Assembly: GCA_965219535.1 (NCBI GenBank)
Contig: CBDCNV010000002.1
Coordinates: forward strand, 2,154,981-2,218,980
Direction of reading: 5' to 3'
Origin: Opitutales bacterium
GTDB taxonomy: Bacteria; Verrucomicrobiota; Verrucomicrobiia; Opitutales; PNEW01
Length of the DNA stretch: 64,000 nucleotides
Under the pieces are notes generated by a model. That model was not told where the DNA came from. It was given only the letters and a program-made list of their open reading frames with translations, and made no database searches. The translations under genes were made by a program, and so were the position numbers. Within the stretch, counting starts at the first letter, position 1. Each line of letters opens with the position of its first letter. Positions 3,042 to 59,666 of the stretch are shown here, piece after piece.

Positions 3042-3059
3042 TGTAATAGATTAATAATA

Positions 3060-13908: not shown

Positions 13909-13937
13909 ATGCTGTTTAATAATGGGTATTAATAACT

Positions 13938-14102: not shown

Positions 14103-14154
14103 GGAGTCCCCGGCGAACCCCAGACGTTTGGCTTTAAGACTTCGATCAGCTTTT
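14103..14154 (+). repeat. 52-bp duplicate of the TonB-dependent receptor 3' end, including a stop codon
   Basis: Matches 13855-13906 with 2 mismatches. Both copies end in an in-frame stop (TGA, TAA). Confidence 0.9.
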
Positions 14155-14217
14155 AAAACAAAAGTAAAAGGAGCAGCAGCCAATAAGCTTATAAATGATG
14201 GAGCTTTGTCTTCGTTT

Positions 14218-14416
14218 GTCATTGCGAGGAGCAACGCGACGCGGCAATCCAGGCAAATATTCAATGTGTTTACGAAAGCAAGTCTTCGTTAAGATTCACG
14301 AAAAAATGTAAATGAAAATGATATAGCGCTAGCATATTTAATGAGAAATATAGGAGATCGGTTAATTCAATATTCCTGGATTGCCGCGGTCGGCTTATAA
14401 CCTTCCTCGCAATGAC
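14218..14416. repeat. inverted pair of gtcattgcgagg...gcaatccagg arms enclosing an AT-rich core
   Basis: Left arm 14218-14253 and right arm 14375-14416 (cctggattgcc...cctcgcaatgac) belong to the same arm family as the GIY-YIG element at 59215. Confidence 0.8.
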
Positions 14417-14432
14417 AAACTAGGACGATGTC

Positions 14433-15110: not shown

Positions 15111-15382
15111 ATCTATCTTAAATGGTGAAGCCAGAAGGCTTATTATTTTATAATAGCGTCCTCAAAAAAATATTAACCCGAGGACACTGAGGCCACAGAG
15201 TATAAGAATAATAGTCAGCGCTTTTTTTTCCTGCTGAGTCAGCTGCCAGGGCATGTGTGAAATAATTAATAGTTTATCTTAATCCGCAAGGTTTTCTTTA
15301 GGGGATACAGGTTGCCAGATGCGAGATGCAGAAGGAATTGGGAGTGAACAGTAATCAATTATCAGCTATTTTCGCTTATCTT

Positions 15383-15752
15383 GTCATTGCGAAAGAGGCG
15401 CAGCCGACTGCGGCTACCGAGCGCAGCGACATCTTCCATTCCAGGAGGGCGACAAAACGCTTTCGACATTCCCCTGGATCGCCACGGCTGAACAGCAGCC
15501 TCGCAATGACAAGACGAGAATTATTCTATGCGTGTTTTTCTGCCGGGCCTGGCCAGCGGGTCTCGCAATGACAAAGTAATGAACAGGAAGCGTGTTTTAT
15601 ATATCCTCTAATTGATTACCCTTTATTGTCATTGCGAGGAGTGAAGCGACGAAGCAATCCAGGGGGTTGACAATACGCATCAGGCATCTCCCTGGAATGG
15701 AAGGTGTCGCTCCGCGGCTGCGGGATTCGGTAGCGTCATCACCAACTCGCAA
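15383..15752. repeat. cluster of at least five arms of the gtcattgcgagg / ctaccgag...cgacatcttcc family
   Basis: Arms at 15383-15445 (+), 15473-15510 (-), about 15553-15572 (-, partial), 15628-15663 (+) and 15691-15752 (-). Confidence 0.8.
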
Positions 15753-15760
15753 AATTATTC

Positions 15761-18944: not shown

Positions 18945-21155
18945 TTATTCAATCGTTACCTCATCAACCTCGACTGTAATGTCATTACCATCTTCGTTTG
19001 CGAAGGTAGCATTGATGCTCCTTGTGGGTTGAGGTGTGTTGTCCGATTTAAAATTGTTCTGCGTAATCAGTCGATCAAAGCCTCGTGTTGTCGATCCACT
19101 TTCCGCGACCACGATTGATGCTCCATTTGTCTGCGATAGGTCCCCACCGGTGATCCGCAATCCGGGGTTGCCGGCGGGCACAGTAAATGATCCCGTTCCG
19201 AATAAGAGGTGCGGAACCGCATCGCCACTCGCATCGATGTCACCTACCGTTAAGCGTACCGCGATGGGAACACCTCTAGCATCCACACCGACCTTGCCCG
19301 TGCTTCCCGAAAAAACAGTGTTCGACAGCTGTACCCCTCCCATTCCTGTGGAATTGACGACTTCCACGAGGGTCACGTCCGCTTGCGCGTCATAGACCTG
19401 TCCCTCGGGGAAGAGGGCCTGGTTAAACGCGTTGATCCTTCCCACAGTGAAGATACTGAAGAAAGTATTGGCGTCCGCTCCGTCGATGACCACGCTCGGT
19501 TTGCCCGTCACGTACTCAACCTGCTGGTTGTAGCGTGGGGGTATGGCCGGGGGGAGGAAGGTGGCTGGGTCCAGGGTTACGGTAAAGGTGCCATTACCTG
19601 AAAATTCTACCTGCACGATGTCCTCGTTTTCGTCCATGAAGGAAACGCGCGTGATCTGTCCCGGTTTGGCCTGGAGTTGAACGGACTCTCCGGTTAAGAG
19701 GATTTGATCAAATACATTTCCATTCGCGTGCTGAATGTTTTCACCGGCGATATCGCCCGAGCCGTCGAGGACGAGGGGCACGGCGGGAGCTGCCACGGTG
19801 ATGACCGCGGTGTCGCTGTCAGCGGTTCCGTCCGGGTTGCTTACCTGCACCCAGAAGTTTGTGCTCGCGGTGAGAGTACTGGTGGTAAAAGTACTGCCGG
19901 TGGCGCCTGCGATGGGACTCGCAGTGTCGCCGCTGTTGCCTTCATACCATTGGTAGCTCAAGTCATCGCCGCTGGCGGCGATGGTTAAGCTTGCTGAAGC
20001 GCCGGACTCGATCTCCTGGCTCTCGGGCTGGGTAGTGATGGAGGGCCCTTGCGCGGGAGGGGATATATCTTCAAAACCCGGAGCGCCGATCGGGGTAAAA
20101 CCAAAGTCGTCGATTACAGTAACGCTAAAATTTGGATTTACATTTACATCATCGGCTAAAGTAATTCTGGCAATACCGCCTACCGCACCCAATTCACTGG
20201 CTACGAATTTAACCTGAGGTGCAAGGGATCCGGGTCGAATGTCCGGCGGCAGATTTTCAATCGTTCTGAGCAAGTTATCTTCGGTATCAAATACCTGAAC
20301 GGTCCCGTCACTTTCGCCTGCCGCGGTTCTCGCTTCCACGGCGGCATAAAATTGAACCTTCGCTGCCGGTGTTTCGAAAGTGATCGTTCCGGTTCCACCA
20401 TTAAACATTTTCCAGTGCCATGCACCTGAGCGGTGCTGCGTGATACCGATATCTGACGTTGTTGCGACAAAGGCATTAGAAAAGGTGGCGGTAATAGGAG
20501 AGGTCCCAAGAGTAATGATATCCACTCCTACGGGTAAATCATCAAATGTGGTCCACACGGTATTATTCCTTGGCTCATCTGCTACGGTAAAACCAAGATC
20601 ATCGATGACTAATTTACCCGTGATATTAAAGAACTTAATTTCAGCGATACCGTCATAGTAGGTGGTTACGGTTTCCGGTATATATGCATAATCATCAGGA
20701 TAAGCGAGTATCCGCTGCAGAGGAGGATTGCTATCGGGGTTGATACTGGTCGGTAAGCCAGTTACTACATATTGCTCTAATAAGTATAAAAGATCACGTC
20801 CACTATCGTTTGTCGTAACACCTCGGGTCTCGATCTTACCCCCGCCCGTGGTCTCGGCGACATAGAATTGGATTTCAGCAATCCCCTGTGACCTGAAGAT
20901 TTTCCCCTCCTGACCGGGCTCCAGGGTTATCGCTTTGCTTCCCGAATGTAAAAGCGAAGGATCCTCTATAGTCTCCACCTTGAAGCCGATCAATTTCAAC
21001 CGGTTGGGCTCTTCGCCGATGAAAAATTCACCTTCCCCGCTAACGTTCTCAAAATCCGTGAAGCTCTCCAGATCTTGAGGAAGGGCCGACAGGCGCACCG
21101 GTAAATAGAGCAAGAGAAACAGAATTAGAATTATTTTTATGGGTTTTCGTTTCAT
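18945..21155 (-). CDS. secreted Ig-like domain protein with conserved C-terminal domain of unknown function (paralog A)
   Basis: Signal peptide MKRKPIKIILILFLLLYLPVRLSA from the ATG at 21155. Ig-like module ITTQPESQEIESGASASLTIAASGDDLSYQWYEGNSG. About 330 C-terminal residues are nearly identical to the gene at 36303. Confidence 0.8.
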   Translation of the reverse strand: MKRKPIKIILILFLLLYLPVRLSALPQDLESFTDFENVSGEGEFFIGEEPNRLKLIGFKVETIEDPSLLHSGSKAITLEPGQEGKIFRSQGIAEIQFYVAETTGGGKIETRGVTTNDSGRDLLYLLEQYVVTGLPTSINPDSNPPLQRILAYPDDYAYIPETVTTYYDGIAEIKFFNITGKLVIDDLGFTVADEPRNNTVWTTFDDLPVGVDIITLGTSPITATFSNAFVATTSDIGITQHRSGAWHWKMFNGGTGTITFETPAAKVQFYAAVEARTAAGESDGTVQVFDTEDNLLRTIENLPPDIRPGSLAPQVKFVASELGAVGGIARITLADDVNVNPNFSVTVIDDFGFTPIGAPGFEDISPPAQGPSITTQPESQEIESGASASLTIAASGDDLSYQWYEGNSGDTASPIAGATGSTFTTSTLTASTNFWVQVSNPDGTADSDTAVITVAAPAVPLVLDGSGDIAGENIQHANGNVFDQILLTGESVQLQAKPGQITRVSFMDENEDIVQVEFSGNGTFTVTLDPATFLPPAIPPRYNQQVEYVTGKPSVVIDGADANTFFSIFTVGRINAFNQALFPEGQVYDAQADVTLVEVVNSTGMGGVQLSNTVFSGSTGKVGVDARGVPIAVRLTVGDIDASGDAVPHLLFGTGSFTVPAGNPGLRITGGDLSQTNGASIVVAESGSTTRGFDRLITQNNFKSDNTPQPTRSINATFANEDGNDITVEVDEVTIE

Positions 21156-21238
21156 GCTGTTATAACGATAAGAGCGGTTGCCAAAGATGTAGCGAGGAAT
21201 TTTGCGCTCATGAAGCATTACTTGTCGGGTTAGTTTAG

Positions 21239-27324: not shown

Positions 27325-28287
27325 TCACCTCAGTGGATTTACTAGATTGCGTGGGGATAAACCTTTCGCTAAGCGATCAATATTCTCCGCGGCGGCTTTA
27401 GCGCGTCGATGCCACGTCCCCTGTGTGAATCCAGCGACATGCGGCGTAGTTAAAACGTTATCTAACTTTAAAAGGGGATGTTCCGGGGCCAAAGGTTCCT
27501 CGGCGTATGCGTCGATACCCGCACCTTTAATGCGACCGCTTGTCAGGGCCTCAATCAGTGCATCATTGTCAACGATTTCTCCTCGCGCAACATTGATCAG
27601 GACCGCCTTTTCCTTCATTACGCTGAAAGCGTGCTGGTCAATCAGGTGTCGCGTTTGCTTGGTTAAAGGAACGTGCACAGAAAGGAAATCAGACTCGACC
27701 AGAATTTTTTCAAGATCTTCGGGGTATCCAAGAAAGGCGAGATGAAATTCGTCGAGTTCATGCTGCGGAATATCTCTATTATCAATGGCTATGATCCGTA
27801 ATCCCAGGGCCCGGGCCCGTCTTGCCAATTCTTTCGCGCTTGCTCCGAAGCCGACCAATCCCAAAGTCTTTCCTTCGAGCTCATCGTTCATCACCCGATG
27901 CCAGTCTTTGGTGCGATTGTGATTGAGGTTTTTTGCGAAATAGAGAATCATAAGAAGCGCATGCTCTGCAAGAGGGACAGCGGTTAGGGGCCCCGGAGAG
28001 TGGGTGAGGAGCAGACCTTTACCCAAGATATATTCCGTGTCGACATGGTCGAGACCGTTGGTCGTAACCTGCCATAGTTTAACTTCAGCTGCTTTAGCCG
28101 CGTCCATCATCTCATGGGTTCCTATGGCCCCTCCCGTATCGATGACTACCTCAATCTCCTTAAACTGATCAGCAGCCGGTTTGTTTGGATCGTAAATTTC
28201 AATGGGATAACGACCGTCAATAAATTCAACCAGATAACGATAAGAAAAATGTAACCTGTCTGCGTTGCGAAGAAAAAGAACTTTCAT
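27325..28287 (-). CDS. D-isomer-specific 2-hydroxyacid dehydrogenase
   Basis: NAD-binding GLVGFGASAKELARRA, then VARGEIVD and the TPHVAG catalytic His motif. Confidence 0.85.
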   Translation of the reverse strand: MKVLFLRNADRLHFSYRYLVEFIDGRYPIEIYDPNKPAADQFKEIEVVIDTGGAIGTHEMMDAAKAAEVKLWQVTTNGLDHVDTEYILGKGLLLTHSPGPLTAVPLAEHALLMILYFAKNLNHNRTKDWHRVMNDELEGKTLGLVGFGASAKELARRARALGLRIIAIDNRDIPQHELDEFHLAFLGYPEDLEKILVESDFLSVHVPLTKQTRHLIDQHAFSVMKEKAVLINVARGEIVDNDALIEALTSGRIKGAGIDAYAEEPLAPEHPLLKLDNVLTTPHVAGFTQGTWHRRAKAAAENIDRLAKGLSPRNLVNPLR

Positions 28288-28469
28288 GGCTGATAAAGAG
28301 ACTTAATGATAAAATAGTTATGGAGAAGGTGCAAATTTTTCCTGGGCATTATTTATCTTCAATGAGAATAAAAACAGGATGAGGGAAAAGCTCATACATA
28401 AAACCGCCGCAGCGTCATAGCTGTCAGTGTATTTATGGGAGAGACTGAAGACGATTGTCCCAAGTGCAG

Positions 28470-28534
28470 CTAAAACCATTAACACCCGGTAACTCTCTCA
28501 CTTAATAATTGGTACGAAAAACGGGGTCCAATCA
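28470..28534 (-). mobile_element. solo terminal fragment of the IS3-family element found at 38004
   Basis: ctaaaaccattaacacccggtaactctctcacttaataattggtacgaaaaacggggtccaatca is the reverse complement of 38004-38066, differing by a 2-nt insertion and one substitution. Confidence 0.8.
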
Positions 28535-28855
28535 GTTGTTTATAGAATAGGTTTAAGACGATTGTACCCTAACTATAGCTAAGCATTCTCGAGTGCTGTG
28601 GAGTCGTGTGAGGGTTTTAATGAGCGATCAAACATCCTTTGGCACAGCTTTTATTATATCTGGATCCTCTGACTTAACTGACTTAAACATGCGCACGAAC
28701 AAAAGGGTCAAAAGGTCAAAACATTGGATGATGCAGGAGGGTTAGATTGTAATCAGCCGCCTACGCTTCACTATGGCGTTCCAAGGTGGACAGTGATCAG
28801 TTGCCGTCGTCCTACAGTGGTGAATTTAAATCTGATCACATTTGCCTCTCCTCTT

Positions 28856-29040
28856 GTCATTACGAGGCGTGCGGGAATTCATTTGAATATCCTTCTTAAA
28901 TCCTCAGAATCCTTCTCGTGAACCCCTATTGGAAAGACTTGAGTGGAGATTGGTATGAGTAGGCACAATGAATATTCGTCTGGAATGGAAGATGTCTCCC
29001 GCGACCGCGGGATCGGTAGCTTCGCCTCGCTCGCAATGAC
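28856..29040 (+). repeat. gene-less derivative of the GIY-YIG element (degenerate left arm, last ~20 codons of the nuclease gene, long right arm)
   Basis: 28900-28962 reads ILRILLVNPYWKDLSGDWYE-stop, against IALIEAENPHWKDLSGDWYS-stop in the intact gene. The right arm is 28979-29040. Confidence 0.8.
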
Positions 29041-29051
29041 AATTTAAAAAA

Positions 29052-30290
29052 ATGCATTATGTATTAAATTACTTTCGACTCCTTATATTCATCGTGGGTA
29101 TTCTATTAGGATTAGGTATGGGCAGGAATGACGAGTCTAAGTCAGAGAATAATAGAGTAAATCCTTCTAATGCAGAGGACGATCTTACACCGGTCCACGC
29201 AAAAGTTCCCGGTGTCGTTATTAATTATTCTCCCGCGTCTACGAGAGAATTCATTGGTTCTCCCAGCATCGCAGTTCTTCCCAACGGCCATTATGTAGCA
29301 TCGCACGACTTCTTTTACCCACGCGAAAGGATGACCCGAACGAAGCGCCCGACAATCGTTATCTACGGGTCGGAAGACAGAGGTGAAACCTGGAAACAAC
29401 TATCCAGATTCAAAGGGCAGTTCTGGTCGACCTTATTTGTTTATGAAGAAGCGCTCTATCTTTTTGGCGCCAGTAGGGAATATGGTTACGTGGTAATCCA
29501 AAAATCTGAGAACGGAGGGAAAACTTGGACGAAGCCTAAAGATGGAAAGAGCGGTCTTATCAAAGACGATGCTAAACACCAAAGCACACCGTTCCCCCCT
29601 GTGATCCACGACGGAAGAATCTGGAAGGCATTTGAGCAGGTGGGGGATTTAAAGATGTCCCGTAAAGATATATTTGATAATAAAGGGGATTGGAGATCGT
29701 TCGTCATGTCCGCGCCCGTCGATGCGAACTTGCTCAACGCTGAGAATTGGCGTGTAAGCGAACTACTCCATCATGAGCAGCCAAATTTCATGTGGCTTGA
29801 AGGAAACATCGTAGTAACGCCTGAAGGCAGGTTAATAAACATCTTACGCATGAATGATCTTAAATGGGCCAGCTACGATAAGGCGGCGGTCGTGCACGTT
29901 TCGGATGACGGCATGGAGCTCTCGTTCGATCCCGAGACGGACATTATTAACTTCCCGGGTGGCGGAGCAAAATTCACACTTCATTATGATGAGAAAAGCA
30001 ATCGCTACTGGTCCATCGGCAATAAACAAACAAACCCCAAGGCGCGACGCAACGTCCTCGTGCTCACCTCTTCGTCCGATTTGAAGAACTGGAAAATAGA
30101 GAAGACTCTCCTGCAACATCACGATGAAGAAAAACACGCCTGGCAGTACGTAGACTGGTTGTTTGATGATGATGATATCATCGCAGTTTCAAGAACAGCT
30201 TATGACGATGGTCTCGGTGGCGCCTACAACCATCATGACGCAAACTATCTTACTTTTCATCGCATAAAAAACTTCCGTGAGAATGAATAA
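29052..30290 (+). CDS. BNR/Asp-box beta-propeller protein (sialidase-like), secreted
   Basis: 412 aa with a signal/anchor segment and Asp boxes SEDRGETW and SENGGKTW. Confidence 0.8.
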   Translation: MHYVLNYFRLLIFIVGILLGLGMGRNDESKSENNRVNPSNAEDDLTPVHAKVPGVVINYSPASTREFIGSPSIAVLPNGHYVASHDFFYPRERMTRTKRPTIVIYGSEDRGETWKQLSRFKGQFWSTLFVYEEALYLFGASREYGYVVIQKSENGGKTWTKPKDGKSGLIKDDAKHQSTPFPPVIHDGRIWKAFEQVGDLKMSRKDIFDNKGDWRSFVMSAPVDANLLNAENWRVSELLHHEQPNFMWLEGNIVVTPEGRLINILRMNDLKWASYDKAAVVHVSDDGMELSFDPETDIINFPGGGAKFTLHYDEKSNRYWSIGNKQTNPKARRNVLVLTSSSDLKNWKIEKTLLQHHDEEKHAWQYVDWLFDDDDIIAVSRTAYDDGLGGAYNHHDANYLTFHRIKNFRENE

Positions 30291-30570
30291 GATTCATCAC
30301 GAAACTGAAAATAGATCACTAATCAATAGGATTTGCCCTATAGAAGAATTAAAACATGACAGACTGCAGAGCAAATCGCTGAAGCCGAACGAAGAGCCGA
30401 GGATTGGCTGAGTAAGCACCAGTGATCGGACCCCGTTATTCGAACCAGTTTAAGTGAGAGAAGTACCAAGTGTTAACGGATTATTGACCTGTCCCCATAA
30501 AACTGGACCAGCAAAGATTTAGTCTGGCATGGGTGGAAAACCTAATAAAAAATAGGAGAAAGAACCACCC

Positions 30571-30871
30571 ATGAAAAGCAAAGGTTCACGAGGCATAGCC
30601 GAGAAGGCCTGACAAACGATATAATAAAGAACAAATCATCTATGCCCTAAGGCAGGTAGAAGGCGGACGAAGGATTGCCGAAGTGTGCCGAGAGTTAGGC
30701 GTGAGCGAACAGACCTACCACCGATGGAAGGGTAAATACGCGGGCATGGGAATGAGCGAATTAAGACGGCTGAAGCAACTCGATGAAGAGAACGCCAGTT
30801 TGAAGAAGCTGGTAGCTGATCTGAGCCTGGACAAGCACATGCTGCAGGAAGTAATCGCAAAAAAATTATAA
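30571..30871 (+). pseudogene. IS3-family transposase OrfA (HTH), interrupted after codon 2 by a 37-nt segment
   Basis: A Shine-Dalgarno sequence (aggag) and the ATG at 30571 lead to a TGA at 30610. The conserved frame KRYNKEQIIYALRQVEGG... starts at 30614 with no start codon of its own. Confidence 0.7.
30859..30865 (+). promoter_or_regulatory. A7 programmed -1 frameshift site between OrfA and OrfB
   Basis: In gcAAAAAAAtta the -1 frame continues as KKIIKPVRKKVIADWL into OrfB. Confidence 0.75.
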
Positions 30872-30876
30872 AGCCT

Positions 30877-31743
30877 GTGCGCAAGAAGGTGATTGCTGAC
30901 TGGTTAGTGGAAGCTTATGAGGTGAGCAAACGCCGCGCGTGCAGGCTGATGAAGTTGTATTGGTCGAGTTATAACTACCAGCCGGTGAAGAAGGACGAAC
31001 GTGCGCTGATCATGCGCATCCGTGACCTCGCCGCAGCGCGCGTGCGCTACGGGTATCGGCGAATCACGGTGTTATTAAAGCGGGAAGGCTGGACGGTAGG
31101 AAAGAAACGCGTTTATCGTATCTACAAGGCCGAAGGGCTGGAAGTGCGCACGAAGAAACGAAAGAAGCGTGCCGCGCAAAGACGGGTCTCACTGCCCGCG
31201 GCTTCAGCAGCCCAGGAGCGCTGGTCGATGGACTTTATGAGCGATCGGCTGACCAACGGCCGCCCCTTCCGCATACTCACCGTTGTCGATCAATACACCC
31301 GAGCTTGCCCACTGCTTTTGGTCGATACGTCCATCGGTGGGCACAAAGTCGCTGCAGCACTTATGAAAGCCGCTGCAGGAATCGGTCTTCCCCAAACCAT
31401 TACCGTCGATAATGGGCCCGAGTTTTCCGGCAAAGTACTGGATGAATGGGCTTATGGCCATGACATCAAGCTGGATTTTATCCGGCCAGGTAAACCCGTA
31501 GAGAATGGTTATATTGAGAGTTTCAATGGACGCTTACGAGATGAACTTCTTAACACCGAGCTATTTTGTACGCTCGCTGAAGCGAAAGAAAAACTTGAAG
31601 CCTGGCGGCTTGATTATAATACTCAAAGACCACACAGTTCTCTGGGCTATCGGCCTCCGGCCGAATACGCCCAGAGAGCCATGTCTAAGAAAATTAAAAC
31701 CCATACCACCCTGCCGGAACTAACACTTGCTCTGGTACAGTAA
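30877..31743 (+). CDS. IS3-family transposase OrfB (DDE/rve integrase core)
   Basis: WSMDF...DNGPEF...NGYIESFNGRLRDE catalytic-core motifs. Confidence 0.9.
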   Translation: MRKKVIADWLVEAYEVSKRRACRLMKLYWSSYNYQPVKKDERALIMRIRDLAAARVRYGYRRITVLLKREGWTVGKKRVYRIYKAEGLEVRTKKRKKRAAQRRVSLPAASAAQERWSMDFMSDRLTNGRPFRILTVVDQYTRACPLLLVDTSIGGHKVAAALMKAAAGIGLPQTITVDNGPEFSGKVLDEWAYGHDIKLDFIRPGKPVENGYIESFNGRLRDELLNTELFCTLAEAKEKLEAWRLDYNTQRPHSSLGYRPPAEYAQRAMSKKIKTHTTLPELTLALVQ

Positions 31744-31811
31744 ACGGGAGCAGGTCATTATCCCGATAACCTTTCACTGTAAATGATACGATTTTTGGGG
31801 TCACTCCACAG

Positions 31812-32672
31812 CTAATTCGATGGTAGATCGATGGCCCCTTTTTCCTGAAGCCAGTTAATCCACTGTTGTCGTTTCGGGCTTTTCTCAGGATTTGCTAACC
31901 AGTGAGGGTGATACTGCGGATCGTCAGGTTCGTTTCTGATTCTTATATTTCTATTCGCTTCCAGCATCTTTTGCATCGACTTTTTTTCTTCCGTAGTCCT
32001 GGGATTTCCTTGGAAGGTGCAGCCGACAACCCGGCGGTCTTTTGATCCTTTCCATGTGGCATGCCAAAGTCTTCCGTGAAAGAGAATGACATCGCCCGGT
32101 TCTGATTTACACACATGGGCGGGAATATCATTTAATCCCAGACCGGATTTTTTCAAATAGGAATTATCCGACCCCGGTCCTTCATTGGATCCTTTCAACC
32201 CGATTCTGTGGAGTTCATCGTGAAAAGGGCTTAAGTGAGAACCGGGGATAACACGCAGCGCTCCGCTGTTTTCATCTAGTGGCTGCAAATATAAATGAAA
32301 TTTAGCTGATCGACAATTAGGATCATCGGTATCTGGATGCCAGGGAGTGCGGTCACCCGAGAAGTGATTGGCCGTTGAAAACAAAGCGACTGCATCCTCG
32401 GCCAGGAGTTGCTCAGCTGTACCGCATATTCGTGGATCTTCTGGTAATTTTGCGAGGTAAGGAGTTTCAGGACCCAGGTTAGACCAATTTAATTGTCCGC
32501 GTGCGCCTCGTGGTTTGTTATCTTTTTCTAATTTAATCTTAAAGCCTATTTCATATTCATCGTTAATTATATTAAGATCATCGGAGCCGAACGCACCTCG
32601 TAGAAGAAGAAATCCAAAGGTTTTAAAATGTTCTATCTGTTGCTCTGTCAAAATTTTCTTTTCCTTTATCAT
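31812..32672 (-). CDS. PhyH family Fe(II)/2-oxoglutarate oxygenase
   Basis: The start MIKEKKILTEQQIEHFKTFGFLLLRGAF at 32672 is preferred. Motifs WHPDTDD, RVIPGSH, LWHAT. The stop lies immediately next to the CAG target duplication of the adjacent MITE. Confidence 0.85.
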   Translation of the reverse strand: MIKEKKILTEQQIEHFKTFGFLLLRGAFGSDDLNIINDEYEIGFKIKLEKDNKPRGARGQLNWSNLGPETPYLAKLPEDPRICGTAEQLLAEDAVALFSTANHFSGDRTPWHPDTDDPNCRSAKFHLYLQPLDENSGALRVIPGSHLSPFHDELHRIGLKGSNEGPGSDNSYLKKSGLGLNDIPAHVCKSEPGDVILFHGRLWHATWKGSKDRRVVGCTFQGNPRTTEEKKSMQKMLEANRNIRIRNEPDDPQYHPHWLANPEKSPKRQQWINWLQEKGAIDLPSN

Positions 32673-32773
32673 CAATAGATAAGTTAGAAATAGGTGCCTT
32701 CTTAGTCGAGTACTTTCTATAATGAAGAGTCTGGCCACCGCACTGAGCTTAGTCGAAGGGAACCCTCTTCTCC

Positions 32774-32805
32774 TTTTTACCTTTTGACTTTTTTACCTTT
32801 TGACT
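32774..32805. repeat. perfect 16-bp tandem duplication (tttttaccttttgact x2)
   Basis: Read directly. Lies in the divergent region between the PhyH genes at 32672 and 32867. Confidence 0.9.
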
Positions 32806-32824
32806 CTAATCAATCCGCAATCGA

Positions 32825-32852
32825 CTACCGAGGGCAAAGCCCGACATCTCCC
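32825..32852 (+). repeat. core fragment of the arm family (ctaccgagggcaaagcccgacatctccc)
   Basis: Matches the ctaccgag...cgacatcttcc core of the long arms. Ends 15 nt upstream of the PhyH start codon. Confidence 0.65.
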
Positions 32853-32866
32853 AATCTGAAATCGAT

Positions 32867-33718
32867 ATGTCTCAGCGTTTTGAATCCAACTACCCACTCG
32901 ATCCCGAACAGATTAAGGAATGGGTGGACACCTTTAACCGCCAGGGGTTTCTTTTCCTGGAAAATGTTCTGACCGAGGATCATGTAGCCCAGTTGAAAGC
33001 TGATCTCGACTGGTCAATTGACAATATCACTTCAGTCGACGACGACCCCTATGGCAAACTCAGCAGTCGAAATTCAGTAAAAAATATCTGCCTCTGCCAT
33101 CGAATGTTTGAACATAGTCAGGCCAACCTTAACCTCTTCGACCTCGAGCCTATTGTCAGCTTTGCTGAAGCCTTGGTTGCTACCAACAGCCATGTCATTC
33201 ACAACAACTCATGCCATGTCATTAACAATAACTCATTTATCACATATCCGGGTGGTGGTATCACAAGCTGGCACCAGGATGATCCTCCACATATGATCGT
33301 TACCGATGGAGAACCGCCAACGAATATTCAGCTGCCTGTTCTCGCTTTTACCTGCAATTACTATTTAACAGATGTCACTGAAGTTGAACAAGGCGGGACT
33401 GAACTCATTCCAGGTTCTCACCTCTTTGGCGCTGATGCGCGCAAGGCGGATTTCAATGGAGAATGGAAGGACAAAATTCACTATAACTTGGGTAAAGCCG
33501 GAAGCGTGATCATGTTCAACAACCAGGTCTGGCACCGTGGAGGCCCCAATCGCACCAATAGAAAACGTTATATTACCCTAATTACATACGCCCGCCGCTT
33601 TACCGGACACAAATATTTCCCTTTCATGAATTATACGATGCCCGAGCATGTCTACAAGGACGCGAATCCTCGGCTCAAACGCCTCCTCGGCTTCCTCGAA
33701 CACGGCGCTTACGGGTAG
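32867..33718 (+). CDS. PhyH family Fe(II)/2-oxoglutarate oxygenase
   Basis: WHQDD, LIPGSH, VWHRGGPN. Contains an in-frame 24-bp tandem duplication at 33189-33236. Confidence 0.85.
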   Translation: MSQRFESNYPLDPEQIKEWVDTFNRQGFLFLENVLTEDHVAQLKADLDWSIDNITSVDDDPYGKLSSRNSVKNICLCHRMFEHSQANLNLFDLEPIVSFAEALVATNSHVIHNNSCHVINNNSFITYPGGGITSWHQDDPPHMIVTDGEPPTNIQLPVLAFTCNYYLTDVTEVEQGGTELIPGSHLFGADARKADFNGEWKDKIHYNLGKAGSVIMFNNQVWHRGGPNRTNRKRYITLITYARRFTGHKYFPFMNYTMPEHVYKDANPRLKRLLGFLEHGAYG

Positions 33719-34709: not shown

Positions 34710-36066
34710 CAGGACATGGTTTACAGATTTAGATCAAGACATGGTTTACACTTTGTGAGGGATGCTGAACGGTAATCGGGTTATATAGTTAAGTTAATGT
34801 TATGCGGTTTTAGAGGTTTGGCTGGCATTGTTGGGGCCGCAAGCGGCCCCAATGAAAGCAGCCGTTGAAAGGTCAATCTGACCGATTCTGAGAGTGGCAA
34901 AGTAAACATCGAAGTGTACCGTGTCTAGTGGTTTTAGTCCAACGCTCCAACCGGCGAGGGCGGTGGAGATAGGAATCTGGAAGCCATCGAGTTTGATAGA
35001 CCCGCTTTTTGAGACCCGGCGAGTCATCAAATCATAGCTGATATCGGCAGGAGTGCCACCGTAAGGATGAGAGCTGTGCTGATAGATTTCAGAGGGCGTG
35101 CTCATGGCAAGAGCCGCATGGGGGCGTTCTTCATTGAAGGTCTTGCGCCACAGATCGAAGGCCACCTGTTGGGTGCGAAGATCGTCCTGGGCATGTTTTT
35201 GCAACTCCTCTTTGATATCGCGATGGAGACGCTCATGGGCACCGTTATCCTGGGGTTTACCCGGACGTCCACGCTCGAGATTGATCCCTAAGGCCAGCCA
35301 CCAGGCCGCCAGTTTGCTCAGGCCCAGGACCGCATTGGCACTGGCAAAGGGACTGCCGTTGTCGCTGCGGATGCAAGCGGGAAGTCCATAGCGTTCAAAG
35401 AGTTTTGTGAAGCATTCACGCACCGCTTCGCTACGGGCTGAACTGAGCACCCGCACCTCTAATACATAGCGGCTCCATTCATCCCGTACCGTCAAAGGTT
35501 CACAACGGTTGCCATCAACGGTGTGCCACCACCCTTTGAAGTCTACGCTCCACACTTCGTTACAGCCACTGGCCTTGACGCTGCGGTAAAGGCGTCCGCT
35601 TTTTTGAGCGCTTCTGCGCCGACGCTTTTGCACCAGTCCCGCACGTTCCAAGACCCGTTTCACGCTCGAGTCTGAGGGGGCCTTCCCGTAACGCCTCTGG
35701 TAAAGCTCGCGGATCTTGTAGGGGCCCCACGTCGGGTGATGATGCTTGAGTTTGATCAGCGTACATACTACTGATTCGGATAGTTCCTGAACACTTCCAT
35801 GCGGTCGGCGTGAGCGCTCGTGCAACCCCTCCATCCCTTCGCTCAGGAAGCGCTTCTTCCATTTATACCCTGTCGGTCGGCTGATCCCGTAGTCTTCACA
35901 CAGCTCGTTCATCTTTACTCCCGGTTGCATCGATTCCAGGGCGAATTGGTATCTTTGGTCCATTTTATTTGTTTCCTTCCATGACATCATACCCCTTACT
36001 TAGCATCCTTCTTTCTTTGGCAATCTGTAAAGGATGTCCTGAACCTTTTGTGTAAAGAATGTCTTG
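34710..36066 (-). mobile_element. IS481-family insertion sequence; exact ends ambiguous
   Basis: Single DDE transposase gene. 17-bp repeats caRgacatNNtttacaS occur twice at each end (34710, 34735, 36025, 36050). Confidence 0.75.
34800..35990 (-). CDS. IS481-family DDE transposase
   Basis: N-terminal HTH (ISRPTGYKWKKRF), rve core WSVDFKG...SDNGSPF...QDNGAHERLHRDIK. Confidence 0.85.
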   Translation of the reverse strand: MMSWKETNKMDQRYQFALESMQPGVKMNELCEDYGISRPTGYKWKKRFLSEGMEGLHERSRRPHGSVQELSESVVCTLIKLKHHHPTWGPYKIRELYQRRYGKAPSDSSVKRVLERAGLVQKRRRRSAQKSGRLYRSVKASGCNEVWSVDFKGWWHTVDGNRCEPLTVRDEWSRYVLEVRVLSSARSEAVRECFTKLFERYGLPACIRSDNGSPFASANAVLGLSKLAAWWLALGINLERGRPGKPQDNGAHERLHRDIKEELQKHAQDDLRTQQVAFDLWRKTFNEERPHAALAMSTPSEIYQHSSHPYGGTPADISYDLMTRRVSKSGSIKLDGFQIPISTALAGWSVGLKPLDTVHFDVYFATLRIGQIDLSTAAFIGAACGPNNASQTSKTA

Positions 36067-36210
36067 AACCTATACCTCAGGGTCAAACGTAGAATTTAAA
36101 TATACTCTGTAACGGGTCTCAGTAGTCGATTGATTCATGATGCATGCTGCAGTATTCAGGATGTCATGGGGTAGGGGGTCGGATTGCAGAATGTACGAAA
36201 CCGACATTCC

Positions 36211-36271
36211 CCTGGAGTGGAAGATGTCGCTGCGCTCGGTAGCCACGGCTGACAAGCAGCCTAGCGATGAC
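36211..36271 (-). repeat. solo long arm of the gtcattgcgagg family
   Basis: cctggagtggaagatgtcgctgcgctcggtagccacggctgacaagcagcctagcgatgac. Confidence 0.75.
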
Positions 36272-36302
36272 AAGGTATTTCAATCGAAAAACGGCAATCG
36301 TA

Positions 36303-38003
36303 TCATTCTATTGTCACTTCTTCAGTTGTCACCGCGATATCATCCCCATCCTCGTTGGAGAAGGTAGCGTCAATGCTCAGGGTCGGTTGAGGCGTTTCGT
36401 CAGACTTGAAATTGTTCTGTGTGATCAGAGTCTCAAATCCCGGTGTTGTCGATCCACTCTCCGCCACGACGATCGAAGCGCCATTCGTCTGCAACAGGTC
36501 TCCACCCGTGATGCGCAAACCGGGGTTGCCCGCCGGTACCGTGAAGGACCCGTTTCCGAACAGCAGGTGCGGCACCGCATCGCCGTCGGCGTCGATGTCG
36601 CCCACCGTTAATCGTACCGCGATCGGTACGCCACGCGCATCGAAGCCGACCTTGCCGGTGCTTCCACTGAACACGGCATTCGATAACTGTACCCCTCCCA
36701 GGCCCGTGGAGTTGACTACTTCCACGAGGGCCACATCGGCCTGGGCGTCATAGACCTGTCCTTCGGGGAACAGCGCCTGGTTAAAGGCGTTGATCCTGCC
36801 CACCGTGAAAATGCTGAAGAAGGTATTGGCGTCAGCTCCATCGATGACCACACTCGGCTTGCCCGTCACATACTCAACGGCCTGGTTGTAGCGTGGAGGG
36901 ACAGCCGGGGGCAGGAAGGTGGCCGGGTCCAGGGTTACGGTAAAGGTACCGTTACCTGAGAACTCTACCTGCACAATGTCCTCGTTTTCGTCCATGAAGG
37001 AAACACGGGTGATCTGTCCCGGTTTGGCCTGGAGTTGGACGGACTCTCCGGTGAGTAGTATCTGGTCGAAGACGTTGCCGTTGGCATGCTGAATGTCTTC
37101 ACCCGCGATATCGCCCGAGCCGTCGAGGACGAGGGGCACTGAAGGTGCTGCTACCGTGACGACGGCCGTATCGCTGTTGGCGCTCCCTCCGGCGTTCGTT
37201 ACCTGCACCCAGAAATTCGTGCTCGCGGTGAGTGCACCCGTGGTCAAGGTATTCGACGTAGCTCCGGCGATGGGATGATTAGCAGAGTCGCCGCTATTGC
37301 CTTCATACCACTGGTAAGTGAGATCGTCGCCGCTGGCTTCAACTGACAAAACGACAGCGGTCCCCGACTGCACTTCCTGGTTCGTGGGTTGGGTAGTGAT
37401 AGAGGGAGCATCCGCGGGTGGCGGTGCTGAGGTATCAGTGCCCGGTGCGCCAATAGGAGTAAAACCGAAATCATCGAAGACTGTTGCGCTTCTCGCTATA
37501 TTTACATTGGGATTGTCCTTAACAATCAGTCTGCCAATGCCGCCTGGAGCTCCCAACTCTACCGTATTGATTGTAGTTTGACGGGGTTTGAATAAAGCAT
37601 CAAGAGCCCCAGCACTTTCCAAGTCCGAAAAGGTAGCAAGAAGGTTATCATTAGTATCGTAAACTTCGATTGTTCCGTCGGGGTCAGTAGTGCCAGTCAA
37701 AACAATGGCTGCGGCGAAAACATCGATCTCAAATGCCGGGGTTTCAAAAGTGACCGTGAAGCTTTCTCCGTTAGCAATCCCATAGGATTGAAGTCCCGAT
37801 CGCGTTGGATTATTTGCGGCAGATAAAATCGAGCCCCCAACAAAAGTAGCTCTAATAGGTGATTCCCCAACAATAATGGGTGCCGTTATACCTGCACCCA
37901 CACTAAAATCCTCAAAAGTAGTGAATACGGTGTTATTGGACGGTCTTTTCGTTATGGTGAAACCCAGATCGTCAAGGGAGAATTTTCCTGAAACATTTTT
38001 GAT
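36303..38003 (-). pseudogene. Ig-like secreted protein paralog B, C-terminal part (separated from its 5' end by an IS)
   Basis: The frame is open up to the IS boundary at 38003 (IKNVSGKFSLDDLGFTI...). It is collinear with paralog A from about residue 187 onward. Confidence 0.8.
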
Positions 38004-38030
38004 TGATCGGACCCCGTTTTTCGTACCAAT

Positions 38031-38954
38031 TTAAGTGAGAGAGTTACCGGGTGTTAATGGTTTTAGGATTGATGTATATGAGAGATCTTGGCGAAGTGAG
38101 GGCGTAGCCCGAACGCGGCCAAGATCGGAAAGGAATCTGACAAACTCTTGTGGGCTTTTGAAGCCTAAACGACTGTGGGGATGTTCATGGTTATAGGTCT
38201 GACGCCATTGTTCGATTACCACTTGCGCTTCAGCCACGCTGAGTAACACTTCACGGTTCAAACACTCATCGCGTAAGCGGTTGTGAAACGACTCGATGAA
38301 ACCGTTTTGCCAGGGACTGCCCGGATCGATATAGATCGCCTTTATGTTATTACCGGACAACCACTGCTGCACTTGATGAGCAATGAACTCACTGCCGTTG
38401 TCACTACGGATATAGCTGGGAGGTCCCTCCTCTTCAATGGCCTCGCTAAGCACAGAGAGGACATCGGTTGAGGTGAGTTGACGAGCGACCCGGATATCCA
38501 GGCATTTACGCGTATATTCATCGATTAGAGTCATCATCTTTAATGGACCGCCGTTGTCTGTACGATCATGGACAAAGTCCCAGGACCAAACGTGATTGCG
38601 ACCCTTTGCTTTAGTAGGTGACCCCGTAGAGACTCCTTGACGGTGTCTGCCCTTTTTCGGGGGCTTTACCTGCAGCCCTTCTGAACGTCGTACCGCCTGG
38701 ACAAACTTCCTGCTTGTTGTCCAGCCTTCCTTTACCAGCAAGGCACGGATGCGCCGGTAACCGTAGCGGGGATGTTTCCAGGACAAGCTCACAATCCGCT
38801 CGACCAACCGCTGAGCTTTCTCACTGGCCTGTTTGGGCCGGTAACTGAACGTTGACCAACTCAGGCTGAGATAAGCACAAGCCCTCCGCAACGAGCACAA
38901 CCCTTTCTCAGCCGCAGCTTTTACTACTCGTTTCTTCTGCTTTGGGCTCACCAT
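38031..38954 (-). CDS. IS3-family transposase OrfB (DDE/rve core)
   Basis: WSWDF...SDNGSEF...NGFIESFHNRLRDE. The stop lies inside the terminal repeat. Confidence 0.9.
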   Translation of the reverse strand: MVSPKQKKRVVKAAAEKGLCSLRRACAYLSLSWSTFSYRPKQASEKAQRLVERIVSLSWKHPRYGYRRIRALLVKEGWTTSRKFVQAVRRSEGLQVKPPKKGRHRQGVSTGSPTKAKGRNHVWSWDFVHDRTDNGGPLKMMTLIDEYTRKCLDIRVARQLTSTDVLSVLSEAIEEEGPPSYIRSDNGSEFIAHQVQQWLSGNNIKAIYIDPGSPWQNGFIESFHNRLRDECLNREVLLSVAEAQVVIEQWRQTYNHEHPHSRLGFKSPQEFVRFLSDLGRVRATPSLRQDLSYTSILKPLTPGNSLT

Positions 38955-39241
38955 TTTTTTGACAGCGTTTCCTCCATTACCTGATTCTTGAGCATTTGAT
39001 CTGCGAGCAGCTTCTTCAGCTCGGTATGTCAGGCCTTCTCGCTTGCGCTCGTGAATTCTTTTTCCAGCTCTTTAAATCGCTTCGCATCGGCAAGTTCTAA
39101 ATTGCCATATTTTTTACGCCAGCGATAGAAAGTCTGTTCGCTCAGGTTGTTTCCACGGCAGATTTCCTGTACCGTTTTACCGGTATCGGCTTGCCGCAAT
39201 ATTGTTATAATCTGTTCTGTTGTGTATCTTTTTCTTTTCAT
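38948..39241 (-). pseudogene. IS3-family transposase OrfA with an in-frame TGA inside an extra 27-nt segment
   Basis: MKRKRYTTEQIITILRQ...RFKELEKE[FTSASEKA-TGA]HTELKKLLADQMLKNQVMEETLSKKW. The A7 slippery site is at 38954-38960. Confidence 0.7.
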
Positions 39242-39306
39242 TGAGGTTATCTGTTTATCCCGATAACCTCTCTCTGTAAATGATACGATTTTTGGGGGTC
39301 ACTCCA

Positions 39307-39541
39307 CGAGGGTTATCGCTTTGGTTCCCGAGTGTAAGAGCGCTGGATCTTCTAAAGTTTCTACTGTGAAACCGACTAATTTTACCCTGTTTGGCTCTTC
39401 CCCAATGAAAAATTCACCTTCCCCGCTGATATCCTCAAAATCCGTGAATACCTCGAGGTCTTGCGGTAGAGCTGAGAGCAGAAACGGTAAGATTAATGCA
39501 CTTAACAAGAGCAAAAAAGAAATGTGATTTCTAAAGTACAT
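39307..39541 (-). pseudogene. Ig-like secreted protein paralog B, N-terminal fragment
   Basis: Signal peptide plus LPQDLEVFTDFEDISGEGEFFIGEEPNRVKLVGFTVETLEDPALLHSGTKAITL, closely matching residues 25-97 of paralog A. Confidence 0.8.
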
Positions 39542-39606
39542 ATAAGATTCCTCAATGAATAAATTAAAGAGAAATCCGTTAGGGTCAAACGGGATTGAAC
39601 TTTCTT

Positions 39607-39853
39607 GTCATTGCGAGGAGCAACACGACGAAGCTACCGAGCGCAGCGACATCTTACACTCCAGGTGAATGTCTGTTGTATGAAGTAGGTCCCTTGGTGT
39701 TAGGATTAATTCTCAACCGATCGTATACTTAATTTTGAGACGAACCCTCATTGGATAGATTTGAGCGGAAATTGGTTTTCGTAGGCATAATGACTATTTG
39801 CCTGGAATGGAAGATGTCGCTGTGCTCGGTAGCCGCGCTTCGCTCGCAATGAC
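39607..39853 (+). repeat. gene-less derivative of the GIY-YIG element (two long arms plus last 13 codons)
   Basis: Arms at 39607-39665 and 39801-39853. 39743-39784 reads NPHWIDLSGNWFS-stop. Confidence 0.8.
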
Positions 39854-40010
39854 AAAAGGAATATTACGAAAATTAGTATTATTTATGATATCCGCTAGGA
39901 AAAATCGCTTCCTCCCACGAGTGATAAGGACCCACTCTCGGAAGCGTCTTTTCCACGAAACATATCACGGGATAACATACAAGGGCGAAGCCCGACATCT
40001 TCCAAATCAG

Positions 40011-49498: not shown

Positions 49499-49762
49499 TT
49501 ATCCTTATTATTTATATTTTCAGGTTTATAGCTGAATTACTTATTCAATTCCAGGGCCGTTGCCTCTACGGTGGTCGAATTCAAGGGTATTACTGATAGA
49601 TAGGAAATTAAAAGCGTGAATTTATATTTTCTAATACTAAATGCAAGCAAGTTGCCAAAAAATTCATGAAGAGGAGTTACCTATAAGTAAAAACGAAAAC
49701 TTCGATCAGAATAACTTTAACTACACAACAGCTATAAAGGTATAAATCTCTTCGTCTGAATT

Positions 49763-50031
49763 GTCATTGCGAGGGAGGCTATCAGCTGACCGCGGCTACC
49801 GAGTCCCGCAACTACGGGACGACATCTTCCATTCTAGGCGAATAGTCATTGTGCTTACTCTTACCAGTCACATGGTAAATCTTTCCAATGAAGGTTCGAC
49901 TTTTAATCAAAACATTACTCATCTGAGGATTAACCTTAACATCTGCGGGTCTACATAACGAAACAGACATCCCCCCGAGTGGAAGATGTCGCTGCGCTCG
50001 GTAGCTTCGTCGCTTTACTCCTCGCAATGAC
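49763..50031 (-). repeat. gene-less derivative of the GIY-YIG element (two long arms plus last ~11 codons, reverse orientation)
   Basis: Arms at 49763-49838 and 49975-50031. 49861-49896 (minus strand) reads NLHWKDLPCDW-stop. Confidence 0.8.
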
Positions 50032-50082
50032 AATTGTGACGATGACTATGATAACCGTGATCCACCCTTTTTATATTTTCTC

Positions 50083-50143: not shown

Positions 50144-50357
50144 GAGACGAAGACGAAGAGTGATTCGATTTATCTCTAATTTAAATCTTTTAATGCAAGG
50201 TGGAGCGGGCTGTCCCTAGCACGCTTCTTCTATTACGACTAAATCAAACGCGCTAGGGATCAGCCGTCGCCAAGGCTATGTCGGACAGACACCGCGTTCC
50301 ACCCTGATATTGTATTAATTAACTGACGAAGACACAGACGTGGACGAAGACGAAGAT
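50144..50357 (-). repeat. composite MITE-like repeat, copy 3 (both gacgaagacgaag termini present)
   Basis: agagacgaagacgaagag at the left, gacgaagacgaagatt at the right, central arms at 50198-50225 and 50250-50304. Confidence 0.75.
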
Positions 50358-50378
50358 TATTATTATCCATCCCTTATA

Positions 50379-59189: not shown

Positions 59190-59214
59190 AGTGTAATTGC
59201 ATCGCGCCCCTATT

Positions 59215-59639
59215 GTCATTGCGAGGAGCAACGCGACGCGGCAATCCAGAAATTTTGGATTAACCATTGCCACATATAAACCGATTTAATACATGTGCGC
59301 AATGTGTATTACGTTTACATCCTCACCAGTAAGCGTAATGGAACACTTTACACTGGTGTCACCTGTAGTTTATTTCGTCGCTTATGGGAACATAAAAATA
59401 AATTTAAGGAAGGGTTTACCAAGAAATACAATATACAAAGGCTGGTATATCACGAATCCTTTTATGATATTCAAAATGCTATCGTACGTGAAAAGCAAAT
59501 TAAAGCCGGATCGAGAAAAAAGAAGATTGCTTTAATTGAAGCAGAGAACCCCCATTGGAAAGATCTGAGCGGAGACTGGTATTCGTAAAACAATGACGAT
59601 TCGCCTGGATTGCTTCGTCGTGATGCTCCTCGCAATGAC
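59215..59639 (+). mobile_element. candidate GIY-YIG nuclease element: single gene bracketed by 35-bp inverted arms
   Basis: The left arm 59215-59249 and the reverse complement of the right arm 59604-59639 agree at 31 of 35 positions. The arm family is dispersed across the window. Confidence 0.6.
59295..59588 (+). CDS. GIY-YIG nuclease family protein (small UPF0213/COG2827-like)
   Basis: 97 codons with a GTG start. YVYILTSKRNGTLYTGVT...RRLWEH...E.AIVREKQIK are typical GIY-YIG motifs. Confidence 0.85.
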   Translation: MRNVYYVYILTSKRNGTLYTGVTCSLFRRLWEHKNKFKEGFTKKYNIQRLVYHESFYDIQNAIVREKQIKAGSRKKKIALIEAENPHWKDLSGDWYS

Positions 59640-59666
59640 AAATGGGGAGGCACGTGCCCTCCATTA

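Follow-up and report, generated by a model that had tools for sequence, protein, structure and literature searches.

Why should an insertion sequence (IS), otherwise intact, carry an additional segment with a stop codon in its first gene? This question is raised by an IS of the IS3 family located in a stretch of 64,000 nucleotides (nt) from an Opitutales bacterium (assembly GCA_965219535.1, contig CBDCNV010000002.1, positions 2,154,981 to 2,218,980 of the forward strand), the whole of which is referred to below as the window. The IS occupies positions 38004-39306 on the minus strand, and the additional segment interrupts its OrfA gene. With a probability of about 0.72, the 27 extra bases can be explained by a mobile repeat of very small size (26-30 nt) and non-autonomous nature, named F1 here, one copy of which inactivates this IS. 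As working labels only, "IS2-type" designates the IS at 38004-39306 and "IS1-type" the other IS of the window, at 30485-31757.

The additional segment in OrfA

The features of the IS2-type element are the following:

38004-39306, minus strand: whole IS2-type IS3-family element, TGGAGTGACCCCC...GGGGTCCGATCA, its ends set by comparison with nine other copies
39056-39241, minus strand: native codons 1-62 of OrfA (ATG at 39241), with the HTH_Tnp_1 DNA-binding part
39027-39055, minus strand: F1 element TTCACGA-GCGCAAGC-GAGAAGGCCTGAC-A, a 28-nt block and a nearly invariant A, replacing one A (net +27 nt)
39041-39048, minus strand: mini-hairpin GC-GCAA-GC within F1, whose second stem pair covaries across variants
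39029-39031, minus strand: in-frame TGA, from the CCTGAC part of F1, truncating OrfA to 70 amino acids (aa) upstream of the frameshift site
38948-39028, minus strand: remainder of OrfA downstream of the TGA, 26 codons of the leucine-zipper region and the stop, aligning with 88-aa homologues
38954-38960, minus strand: A7 slippery site, from direct sequence reading, with a predicted -1 frameshift into OrfB
38031-38954, minus strand: OrfB, 307 aa, with an intact DDE (rve) transposase domain (Pfam and NCBIfam)

An in-frame TGA within an extra 27-nt segment of this OrfA had been reported in the initial annotation, and direct reading of the minus strand confirms it: the segment ttcacgagcgcaagcgagaaggcctga is located at 39055-39029, after 62 native codons, and its TGA at 39031-39029. 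Its nine codons are an insertion, as had been supposed. With the reconstructed 88-aa OrfA as query, more than 30 insert-free homologues of exactly 88 aa (84-97 % identity) are found in the database, reading ...KELEKENTELKKLL and lacking the nine codons. The DNA copies free of the OrfA insert (L089-L096, together with the degraded L066) are without exactly these bases and read either GAAAAAGAA-A-ACACCGAG or GAA-A-ATACC. At the junction, insert-free copies have GAA-AAT or GAA-AAC (KEN), whereas the window has GAA, then 28 nt ending in C, then AT. Since one target A is replaced, deletion of 27 nt gives an OrfA of 88 aa, the length of the homologues, but leaves a His where these have Asn. Among other database open reading frames (ORFs), P0100, P0099, P0106, and P0116 end within the same insert, and in P0107 the TGA is mutated to TGG.

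From its domain matches, namely a helix-turn-helix OrfA and a DDE (rve) OrfB, the host element can be assigned to the IS3 family. The reconstructed OrfA protein matches PF01527 in Pfam (E = 8e-21), and OrfB, which is 91-94 % identical to database proteins of 306-307 aa, reaches 239 bits against NF033516 (cut-off 160) and also matches PF00665 and PF13683. After the TGA, the frame stays open for 26 codons (39028-38951) and passes through the A7 site to the natural stop at 38950-38948. OrfB lies in the -1 frame and overlaps the last part of OrfA; the A7 site, at which a frameshift would join the two, is supported by a fused gene call in the database, P0012, which reads ...LSKKMVSPKQKK. The IS had been described as otherwise intact, and indeed OrfB, the A7 site, and both IS ends (TGGAGTGACCCC...GGGGTCCGATCA) are intact. 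The window copy is without target duplication and its flanks derive from two paralogous genes, an arrangement different from that of a sister strain; in the sister copy L096, CTAT can be found on both sides of the IS.

F1 has thus cut OrfA after codon 62 and supplied the in-frame TGA, and ribosomes therefore stop 69 nt before the A7 site. In the explanation favored here, neither full OrfA nor the OrfAB transposase would be made, save for rare read-through at UGA-C. The window copy would thereby be defective and would move only by means of transposase from intact sister copies.

The F1 repeat family and its target sites

The segment had also been said to resemble an interruption in the other IS, and the two do belong to one repeat family, both having the form TTCACGAG-N7/8-GAGAAGGCCTGACA. 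The boundaries of that other interruption, given as 37 nt at 30577-30613, have to be revised: the orthologous empty site, together with homologues of 90 aa that have no insert and read MKSKGKRYNKEQ, indicates a block of 29 nt at 30585-30613 which replaces one A (net +28 nt).

30485-31757, plus strand: IS1-type IS3-family element, TGACCTGTCCCC...GGGAGCAGGTCA, from the alignment of five copies and from Pfam and NCBIfam
30585-30614, plus strand: second F1, TTCACGA-GGCATAGCC-GAGAAGGCCTGAC-A, at OrfA codon 5, replacing one A (net +28 nt) and shifting the frame

F1 copies have the form 5'-TTCACGA-(mini-hairpin of 2-3 bp)-GAGAAGGCCTGAC-3', nearly always followed by A, and measure 26-30 nt. A scan of one genome per species (596 Gb) with the pattern TTCACGAG-N5-10-AGAAGGCCTGAC, in which 20 bases are specified, gave at least 86 matches in at least 80 loci, compared with about six expected by calculation to occur by chance. 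All but six of the matches listed are from Opitutales, Opitutaceae, Ruficoccus, Pelagicoccus, Pelagisphaera, or unclassified Verrucomicrobiota, with one further listed match in a metagenome-assembled genome (MAG) labelled Planctomycetota; the six exceptions are located in long ORFs and are chance-like, five being from unrelated phyla and one from a Chthoniobacteraceae MAG. Metagenomes from JGI provide 25 more F1 loci, and a search of viral contigs gave zero matches. Most of the listed copies are intergenic, and after their removal in silico almost none is spanned by a long open frame. Dozens of copies can be found in a single MAG, within mosaic repeats of ~200 nt and runs of the heptamers ACCTGAA/ACCTGAC. 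F1 as the end of a larger IS in this copy-rich MAG was rejected, only ~200 nt being conserved, in mosaic form and with no ORF, and so was a CRISPR repeat, as there are no arrays with unique spacers and heptamer repeats lie between tandem copies. The F1 motif was not found in any paper of the literature searched.

Regarding structure, both arms are invariant among 26 distinct F1 variants and the center is a mini-hairpin. Its first pair is always G-C, and its second pair (alignment columns 9-16) is CG in 13 variants, GC in five, UG in three, and UA in one, four being unpaired. The covariation score, 0.366, compares with a mean of 0.125 for shuffled alignments, 500 of which were made without any of them attaining it. 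The hairpin is supported by compensatory changes, to a modest degree considering its only two stem pairs. In every wobble pair, T is the 5' partner and G the 3' partner, a pattern which fits one functional strand. For the window repeats and 13 loci, no Rfam match was obtained at gathering or permissive E-values, and thermodynamic folding of F1 is no better than that of shuffles; nearest-neighbor rules may miss mini-hairpins of this kind. A kink-turn-like fold (UUC/GAA stem with tandem G·A pairs) was also considered; its bulge would be 2 nt rather than 3.

Whatever the flanks, the ends of F1 are constant, and neither terminal inverted repeats nor target duplications are present. Wherever an empty counterpart exists, a unit with T as its first base and C as its last takes the place of one A, the next base nearly always being A, so that a target x-A-A/G-y becomes x-(T...C)-A-y. 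The net lengths of F1 in its targets are 26, 27, and 28 nt. The sites compared are the following:

IS1-type OrfA: empty AAAGG-A-AAACGA; filled AAAGG-(F1)-AAACGA
IS2-type OrfA (window): empty AAGAA-A-ATACC; filled AAGAA-(F1)-ATACC
T-loop of a duplicated tRNA-Met 3' fragment: empty GGGTTC-A-AATCCC, in the intact gene 60 nt away; filled GGGTTC-(F1)-AATCCC
T-loop of another tRNA fragment, opposite orientation: empty GGGATTTG-A-ACCC, in the intact tRNA on the reverse strand; filled GGGATTTA-(F1)-ACCC, the upstream G now being A
IS66-family transposase, Glu codon of D-E-T: empty state deduced from the restored frame, which has Ala where Glu is expected; filled gtcgatg-(F1)-aacgccc

In the last of these sites, on the minus strand of L108 (JAAUXZ010031438.1, ~1237-1263), a sense-oriented F1 interrupts an IS66-family transposase, which matches PF03050 (E = 1e-59) after removal of the insert. 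No similarity between element and flank which could guide insertion was found, and the idea that the 3' half of the element copies or guides the flank upstream of it was rejected, since its scores in local alignment are equal to those of cross-site controls and shuffles.

F1 in the T-loop of duplicated tRNA 3' fragments beside the intact tRNA can be found in L048 (1150-1500) and L097 (7450-7906), and further tRNA-fragment loci with F1 are L006, L022, L099, L107, L113, and L117. These fragments look like att-site remnants of integrated elements. In L048, the tRNA and the fragment are both followed by ATTTCACGAGG, i.e., the first bases of F1 without the rest.

Intergenic gaps of the window harbor composite repeats (13909-14432, 15111-15760, 28900-29057, 36199-36273, 39593-39860, 49760-50040, and 59200-59650). 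Their modules, of the forms TTGTCATTGCGAG-hairpin, GCTACCGAG-hairpin-GACATCTTCCATTCCAGG, and ...CCAATGAGGGTTC, have hairpins which differ among copies, and no Rfam match. One composite is terminated at 28905-28923 by an F1-like sequence without the hairpin, and the small inserts in IS genes look like single modules of such composites. Another repeat family, unrelated in sequence to F1, is present at 10207-10241 and 13991-14025, at 13846-14157, and at 50183-50366; it includes a 35-nt unit of which two copies, separated by 3.8 kb, show 100 % identity, and near 50.2 kb inverted copies can be found that are longer and diverged.

Insert-bearing ISs, their further inserts and their surroundings

Within protein-coding genes, F1 is seen among the matches listed only in transposases, namely IS3 OrfA, the N-terminus of the IS1-type element, and the DET site of an IS66 transposase, and all nine insertion sites in protein-coding genes are sense-oriented. 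Intergenic F1 copies exhibit no orientation bias relative to neighboring genes. The enrichment in transposases may be due to survivorship, such genes being dispensable and multi-copy, or may reflect real targeting. The OrfA codon concerned (...KE-N/H...LK..., the hyphen marking the insertion point here and below) also carries F1 in homologous position in IS3 elements that are only 37-55 % identical in protein to the present one, i.e., L001 and L069 from Ruficoccus and L053, the F1 copies themselves differing by one or two loop bases.

In sister copies of the IS2-type element, four more inserts of 31, 35, 42, and 42 nt can be found in OrfB, with the form T(A/T)CCGAG-hairpin-GCGAC...C and at the fixed positions LID-E, NGS-E, PW-Q, and LRD-E.

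OrfB inserts (42, 31, 42, and 35 nt): L087, 16069-16272; L088-L096, ~2697-3100; L066, 4077-4483

They occur in various combinations: the window copy has the OrfA insert only, L087 the OrfA insert and two OrfB inserts, L089 and L096 one insert each, and L090-L095 all four OrfB inserts with no OrfA insert. The four-insert IS is present at six or more loci with 99.4-99.9 % identity and also carries a nonsense codon. Two of the OrfB insert variants can also be found, with 97 % identity, in other IS3 elements, where they occupy the homologous codon (L081, with an OrfB 66 % identical, and L086, ~40 % identical). The first half of the PW-Q insert closely matches TACCGAGCGCAGCGACATC, of which five copies are located in intergenic composites of the window, and the three other OrfB inserts share the frame TACCGAG...GCGAC with the TACCGAGCGCAGCGACATC module.

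It can be speculated, at rather long odds, that F1 and the 31-42-nt OrfB inserts form one system of tiny single-stranded elements which replace an A (or an A-purine pair) and are codon-directed. Such elements, with the ends 5'-T(T/A)C...C-3' and then A, may be addressed variant by variant to conserved transposase codons, which may be KE-N in IS3 OrfA, LID-E, NGS-E, PW-Q, and LRD-E in OrfB, and D-ET in IS66, all on the sense strand. If so, they would be a new class of homing micro-element which parasitizes insertion sequences through a so far undescribed insertion chemistry or, alternatively, a means by which the host silences ISs, writing stop-bearing oligonucleotides into the non-template strand.

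Some findings suggested that insert-bearing ISs might be functional: five IS1-type copies at different loci share the insert, the four-insert IS is multi-copy, and removal of the inserts in silico from the latter restores one continuous frame. Against this, no single excision regenerates the lost A, the best case leaving C-A; Asn would then become His, three Glu would become Ala, and the Gln of PWQNG would become Pro, beside the FIESF glutamate which we take to be catalytic and conserved in IS3 transposases. Intact OrfB proteins of 306 aa and OrfA proteins of 88 or 90 aa are encoded on the same large contigs, and old F1 copies in OrfA decay freely (P0106, P0107, P0116, and L088). The insert-bearing ISs would thus probably be defective copies mobilized in trans.

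One orthologous pair differs in the presence of the insert. L084, on contig ctg256139 of ENA ERZ25072670, is orthologous to positions 28071-33371 of the window and 99.9 % identical, and its IS1-type copy is insert-free. Over these 5.3 kb, the other differences are two single-nucleotide polymorphisms and two substitutions (AT versus GC) located 6-7 nt upstream of the insert, a cluster which makes short-tract conversion from another IS copy a better explanation than fresh insertion or excision. This pair shows that presence and absence of the insert turn over very fast, but is no proof of de novo insertion. The same contig carries an IS2-type copy which is 100 % identical over 788 nt, F1 included, and has two extra OrfB inserts.

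This contig, from the sister strain, also differs from the window in arrangement. In comparison with positions 35499-39541, the same IS in L087 has the opposite orientation and is surrounded by an additional ~4.2 kb (1272 + 2950 nt), and a gene of 742 aa with an Ig_7 domain is intact there. In the window, by contrast, the IS links the first 80 codons of this gene (39541-39299) to a paralogue (36303-37901), and the arrangement at 35499-39541 is an IS-mediated deletion or inversion. The large surface-protein paralogues at 18945-21218 versus 36303-37901 and 39309-39490, Ig_7-type according to the annotation of the sister strain, are 75-82 % identical, one of them being broken by the IS.

The IS1-type element is itself located between two IS2-type ends (30423-30484 and 31758-31808), the whole coding region of that IS2-type copy being missing. 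A third IS2-type end fragment in the region 28470-28534 consists of 36 nt (28470-28505) that are 100 % identical to 38031-38066. IS1-type copies adjoining IS2-type ends can likewise be found in related genomes (L045 and L066). An 18-nt in-frame tandem duplication (ttaaagcgggagggctgg) can be found in the IS1-type OrfB of L066 and L045, and the IS1-type copy of L044 has a 7-nt deletion and a truncated 3' end.

Competing explanations, related systems and meaning

As a mobile repeat, F1 would be moved in trans by a host- or element-encoded enzyme acting on a single-stranded form (DNA or RNA), and within an IS it would spread passively, by transposition of the defective IS together with short-tract gene conversion. 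Several points weigh against this explanation. The same variant at the same codon in ISs that are 34-60 % divergent in protein demands a degree of target specificity not obviously within the coding capacity of an element of 30-45 nt, and no similarity between element and flank exceeds the controls. With no orientation bias among intergenic copies, a transcription-linked mechanism is unsupported there. In the five IS1-type copies, the ratio of nonsynonymous to synonymous substitution rates (dN/dS) downstream of the insert in OrfA is 0.04-0.11. Such values could point to functional insert-bearing ISs, a reading that was set aside, since insert-free copies are abundant, gene conversion is indicated, and the expanded four-insert lineage has a nonsense codon; they are explicable as inherited from recently active insert-free progenitors, if each copy was recently converted. 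The sole filled and empty orthologous pair, window and L084, does not prove current mobility. No enzyme was identified for the movement of F1, and no de novo insertion was observed.

Among the competing explanations, F1 might not be a mobile unit at all but a patch, copied from mosaic repeats or other IS copies by microhomology-mediated template switching or by gene conversion, with recurrence at the same codon reflecting conserved microhomologies. This is unlikely, even though the two extra substitutions upstream of the insert in the window and L084 pair resemble a conversion tract, templated indels typically replace target bases, the TACCGAGCGCAGCGACATC copies of the intergenic composites are similar to the OrfB inserts, and a hairpin-less F1-like sequence ends one composite. 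A patch hardly accounts for the same two ends in IS3 OrfA, the IS1-type N-terminus, IS66, tRNA T-loops in both orientations, and heptamer arrays; moreover, no shared microhomology is visible at the junctions, the flanks beside identical inserts in divergent ISs are only ~60 % identical, and element-flank scores equal those of cross-site controls. Still less probable is a naturally longer OrfA in which a sense codon suffered a nonsense mutation or in which TGA is recoded, as selenocysteine or as a reassigned stop. The only sequence with the same nine residues and a sense codon in place of the TGA is P0107, which reads through with TGG; it is a decayed insert-bearing copy and its TGG is not the ancestral state. 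Next to nothing is left of this idea, for in more than 30 close homologues exactly 27 nt fewer are present here, the segment occurs as a dispersed repeat, the frame is shifted by other copies of the insert, and this organism uses TGA as a normal stop, with which 9 of the 38 long ORFs of the window end; the insert-free homologues and the normal use of TGA as stop rule out both the mutation and the reassignment.

Alternatively, the inserts could be regulated "switches" in functional ISs, either as mini-introns, as elements resembling internal eliminated sequences, or as segments bypassed in translation. Removal of 27 nt restores the frame, the insert-bearing ISs are multi-copy at different loci, OrfA past the insert is free of stops with the low dN/dS given above in five IS1-type copies, the same inserts occupy fixed conserved codons of divergent ISs in the manner of homing introns, and all inserts in protein-coding genes are sense-oriented. 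Nevertheless, such switches appear very improbable. F1 adds a net 26, 27, or 28 nt, for which -1, 0, and +1 events, respectively, would be required, and with 31, 35, and 42 nt for the OrfB inserts no single recoding event fits. The original A is regenerated by no single excision, L053 is without matching take-off and landing codons, and a nonsense codon is also present in the expanded four-insert lineage. The same genomes also harbor intact OrfA and OrfB copies without inserts, F1 copies within OrfA decay, and there is no match to a ribozyme or intron in Rfam, 28 nt being far below intron size. Two specific variants were likewise rejected: ribosomal bypass with matching codons, since GAA/GAG landing sites exist in two ISs and none in L053, and a +1 frameshift of the prfB type at GCC-UGA-C, which suits the IS1-type copy only.

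The closest analogue of F1 as a mobile repeat appears to be the SDR1-8 repeats of Nostocaceae cyanobacteria, reportedly described by Elhai et al. in 2008. These are said to be of 21-27 nt in numerous dispersed copies, with a hairpin backed by compensatory changes, and often to lie in tandem heptamers or small transposons. They are reportedly confined to one coherent clade and missing at orthologous sites of relatives, no enzyme or mechanism being known. F1 resembles them in its unit of 26-30 nt with constant ends, its many dispersed copies, its hairpin with compensatory changes, its restriction to a clade, and its embedding in ACCTGAA/ACCTGAC runs and in IS3/IS66 genes. We know of no SDR for which replacement of one A, strict genic sense orientation, fixed codons of IS3/IS66 transposases, or insertion in the T-loop of tRNA fragments has been reported. 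F1 would be an analogue rather than a member of this family: it belongs to another phylum (Verrucomicrobiota, Opitutales), and in view of this a relationship by sequence is very improbable, the SDRs being compared by description. Nostocaceae SDRs are cited in two articles (PMC5861425; PMC3116915), one of which states that HIP1-rich cyanobacteria other than Nostocaceae yielded no SDR-like repeat (PMC5861425).

Other known systems share some traits with F1. In the literature, REP/BIME sequences are presented as highly repeated, hairpin-forming, mosaic, non-autonomous units of 20-40 nt, presumed to act in single-stranded form (PMC3116915; PMC2817692, PMC3733652). Like these REP/BIME/REPIN elements associated with RAYT, F1 is short, hairpin-forming, repeated, mostly extragenic, and found in mosaic arrays. 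In contrast, neither F1 nor its reverse complement has a GTAG or CGTC tag beside the hairpin, its stem is of 2-3 bp with long conserved single-stranded arms, and single units are located inside genes; a RAYT gene was neither sought nor found. With IS200/IS605 elements and their miniature derivatives, F1 shares the lack of target duplication, asymmetric ends, a hairpin on one strand, and strand-specific insertion. However, these elements insert 3' of a fixed tetra- or pentanucleotide with no loss of a target base and need two hairpin ends (>100 nt), whereas F1 is a single 28-nt unit with diverse left flanks. Bypass elements, such as those of T4 gene 60 and the Magnusiomyces "byps", are also stop-bearing segments, of 27-55 nt, in otherwise intact coding sequences; unlike them, F1 is without matched take-off and landing codons, its effects on the frame vary, its host copies decay, and the great majority of its copies are non-coding. 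A miniature inverted-repeat transposable element (MITE) was rejected, since TTCACGA... and ...CCTGACA are not inverted repeats and one target base is lost and none duplicated.

What has happened at this locus is in part ordinary, one IS copy being knocked out by an insertion. The inserting agent is the unusual part, being structured, of 28 nt, of an essentially unstudied kind, and in a new phylum, with a peculiar junction and a marked association with transposase genes. To our knowledge, mobile DNA of less than 30 nt has been reported essentially once, in Nostocaceae cyanobacteria, its mechanism being unsolved. F1 provides an independent case in another phylum, with an unusually informative anatomy in its ends, its lost base, its strand-specific hairpin, its sense orientation in protein-coding genes, its repeated codons, and its presence or absence in near-identical strains, and its occurrence in the cultured genera Pelagicoccus (e.g., Pelagicoccus mobilis KCTC 13126, locus L074) and Ruficoccus makes its movement experimentally approachable. 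As the inserts break transposase ORFs, the annotation of Opitutales genomes will wrongly show pseudogenes or frameshifts at such places, and the inserts are a hidden route by which IS copies become non-autonomous.

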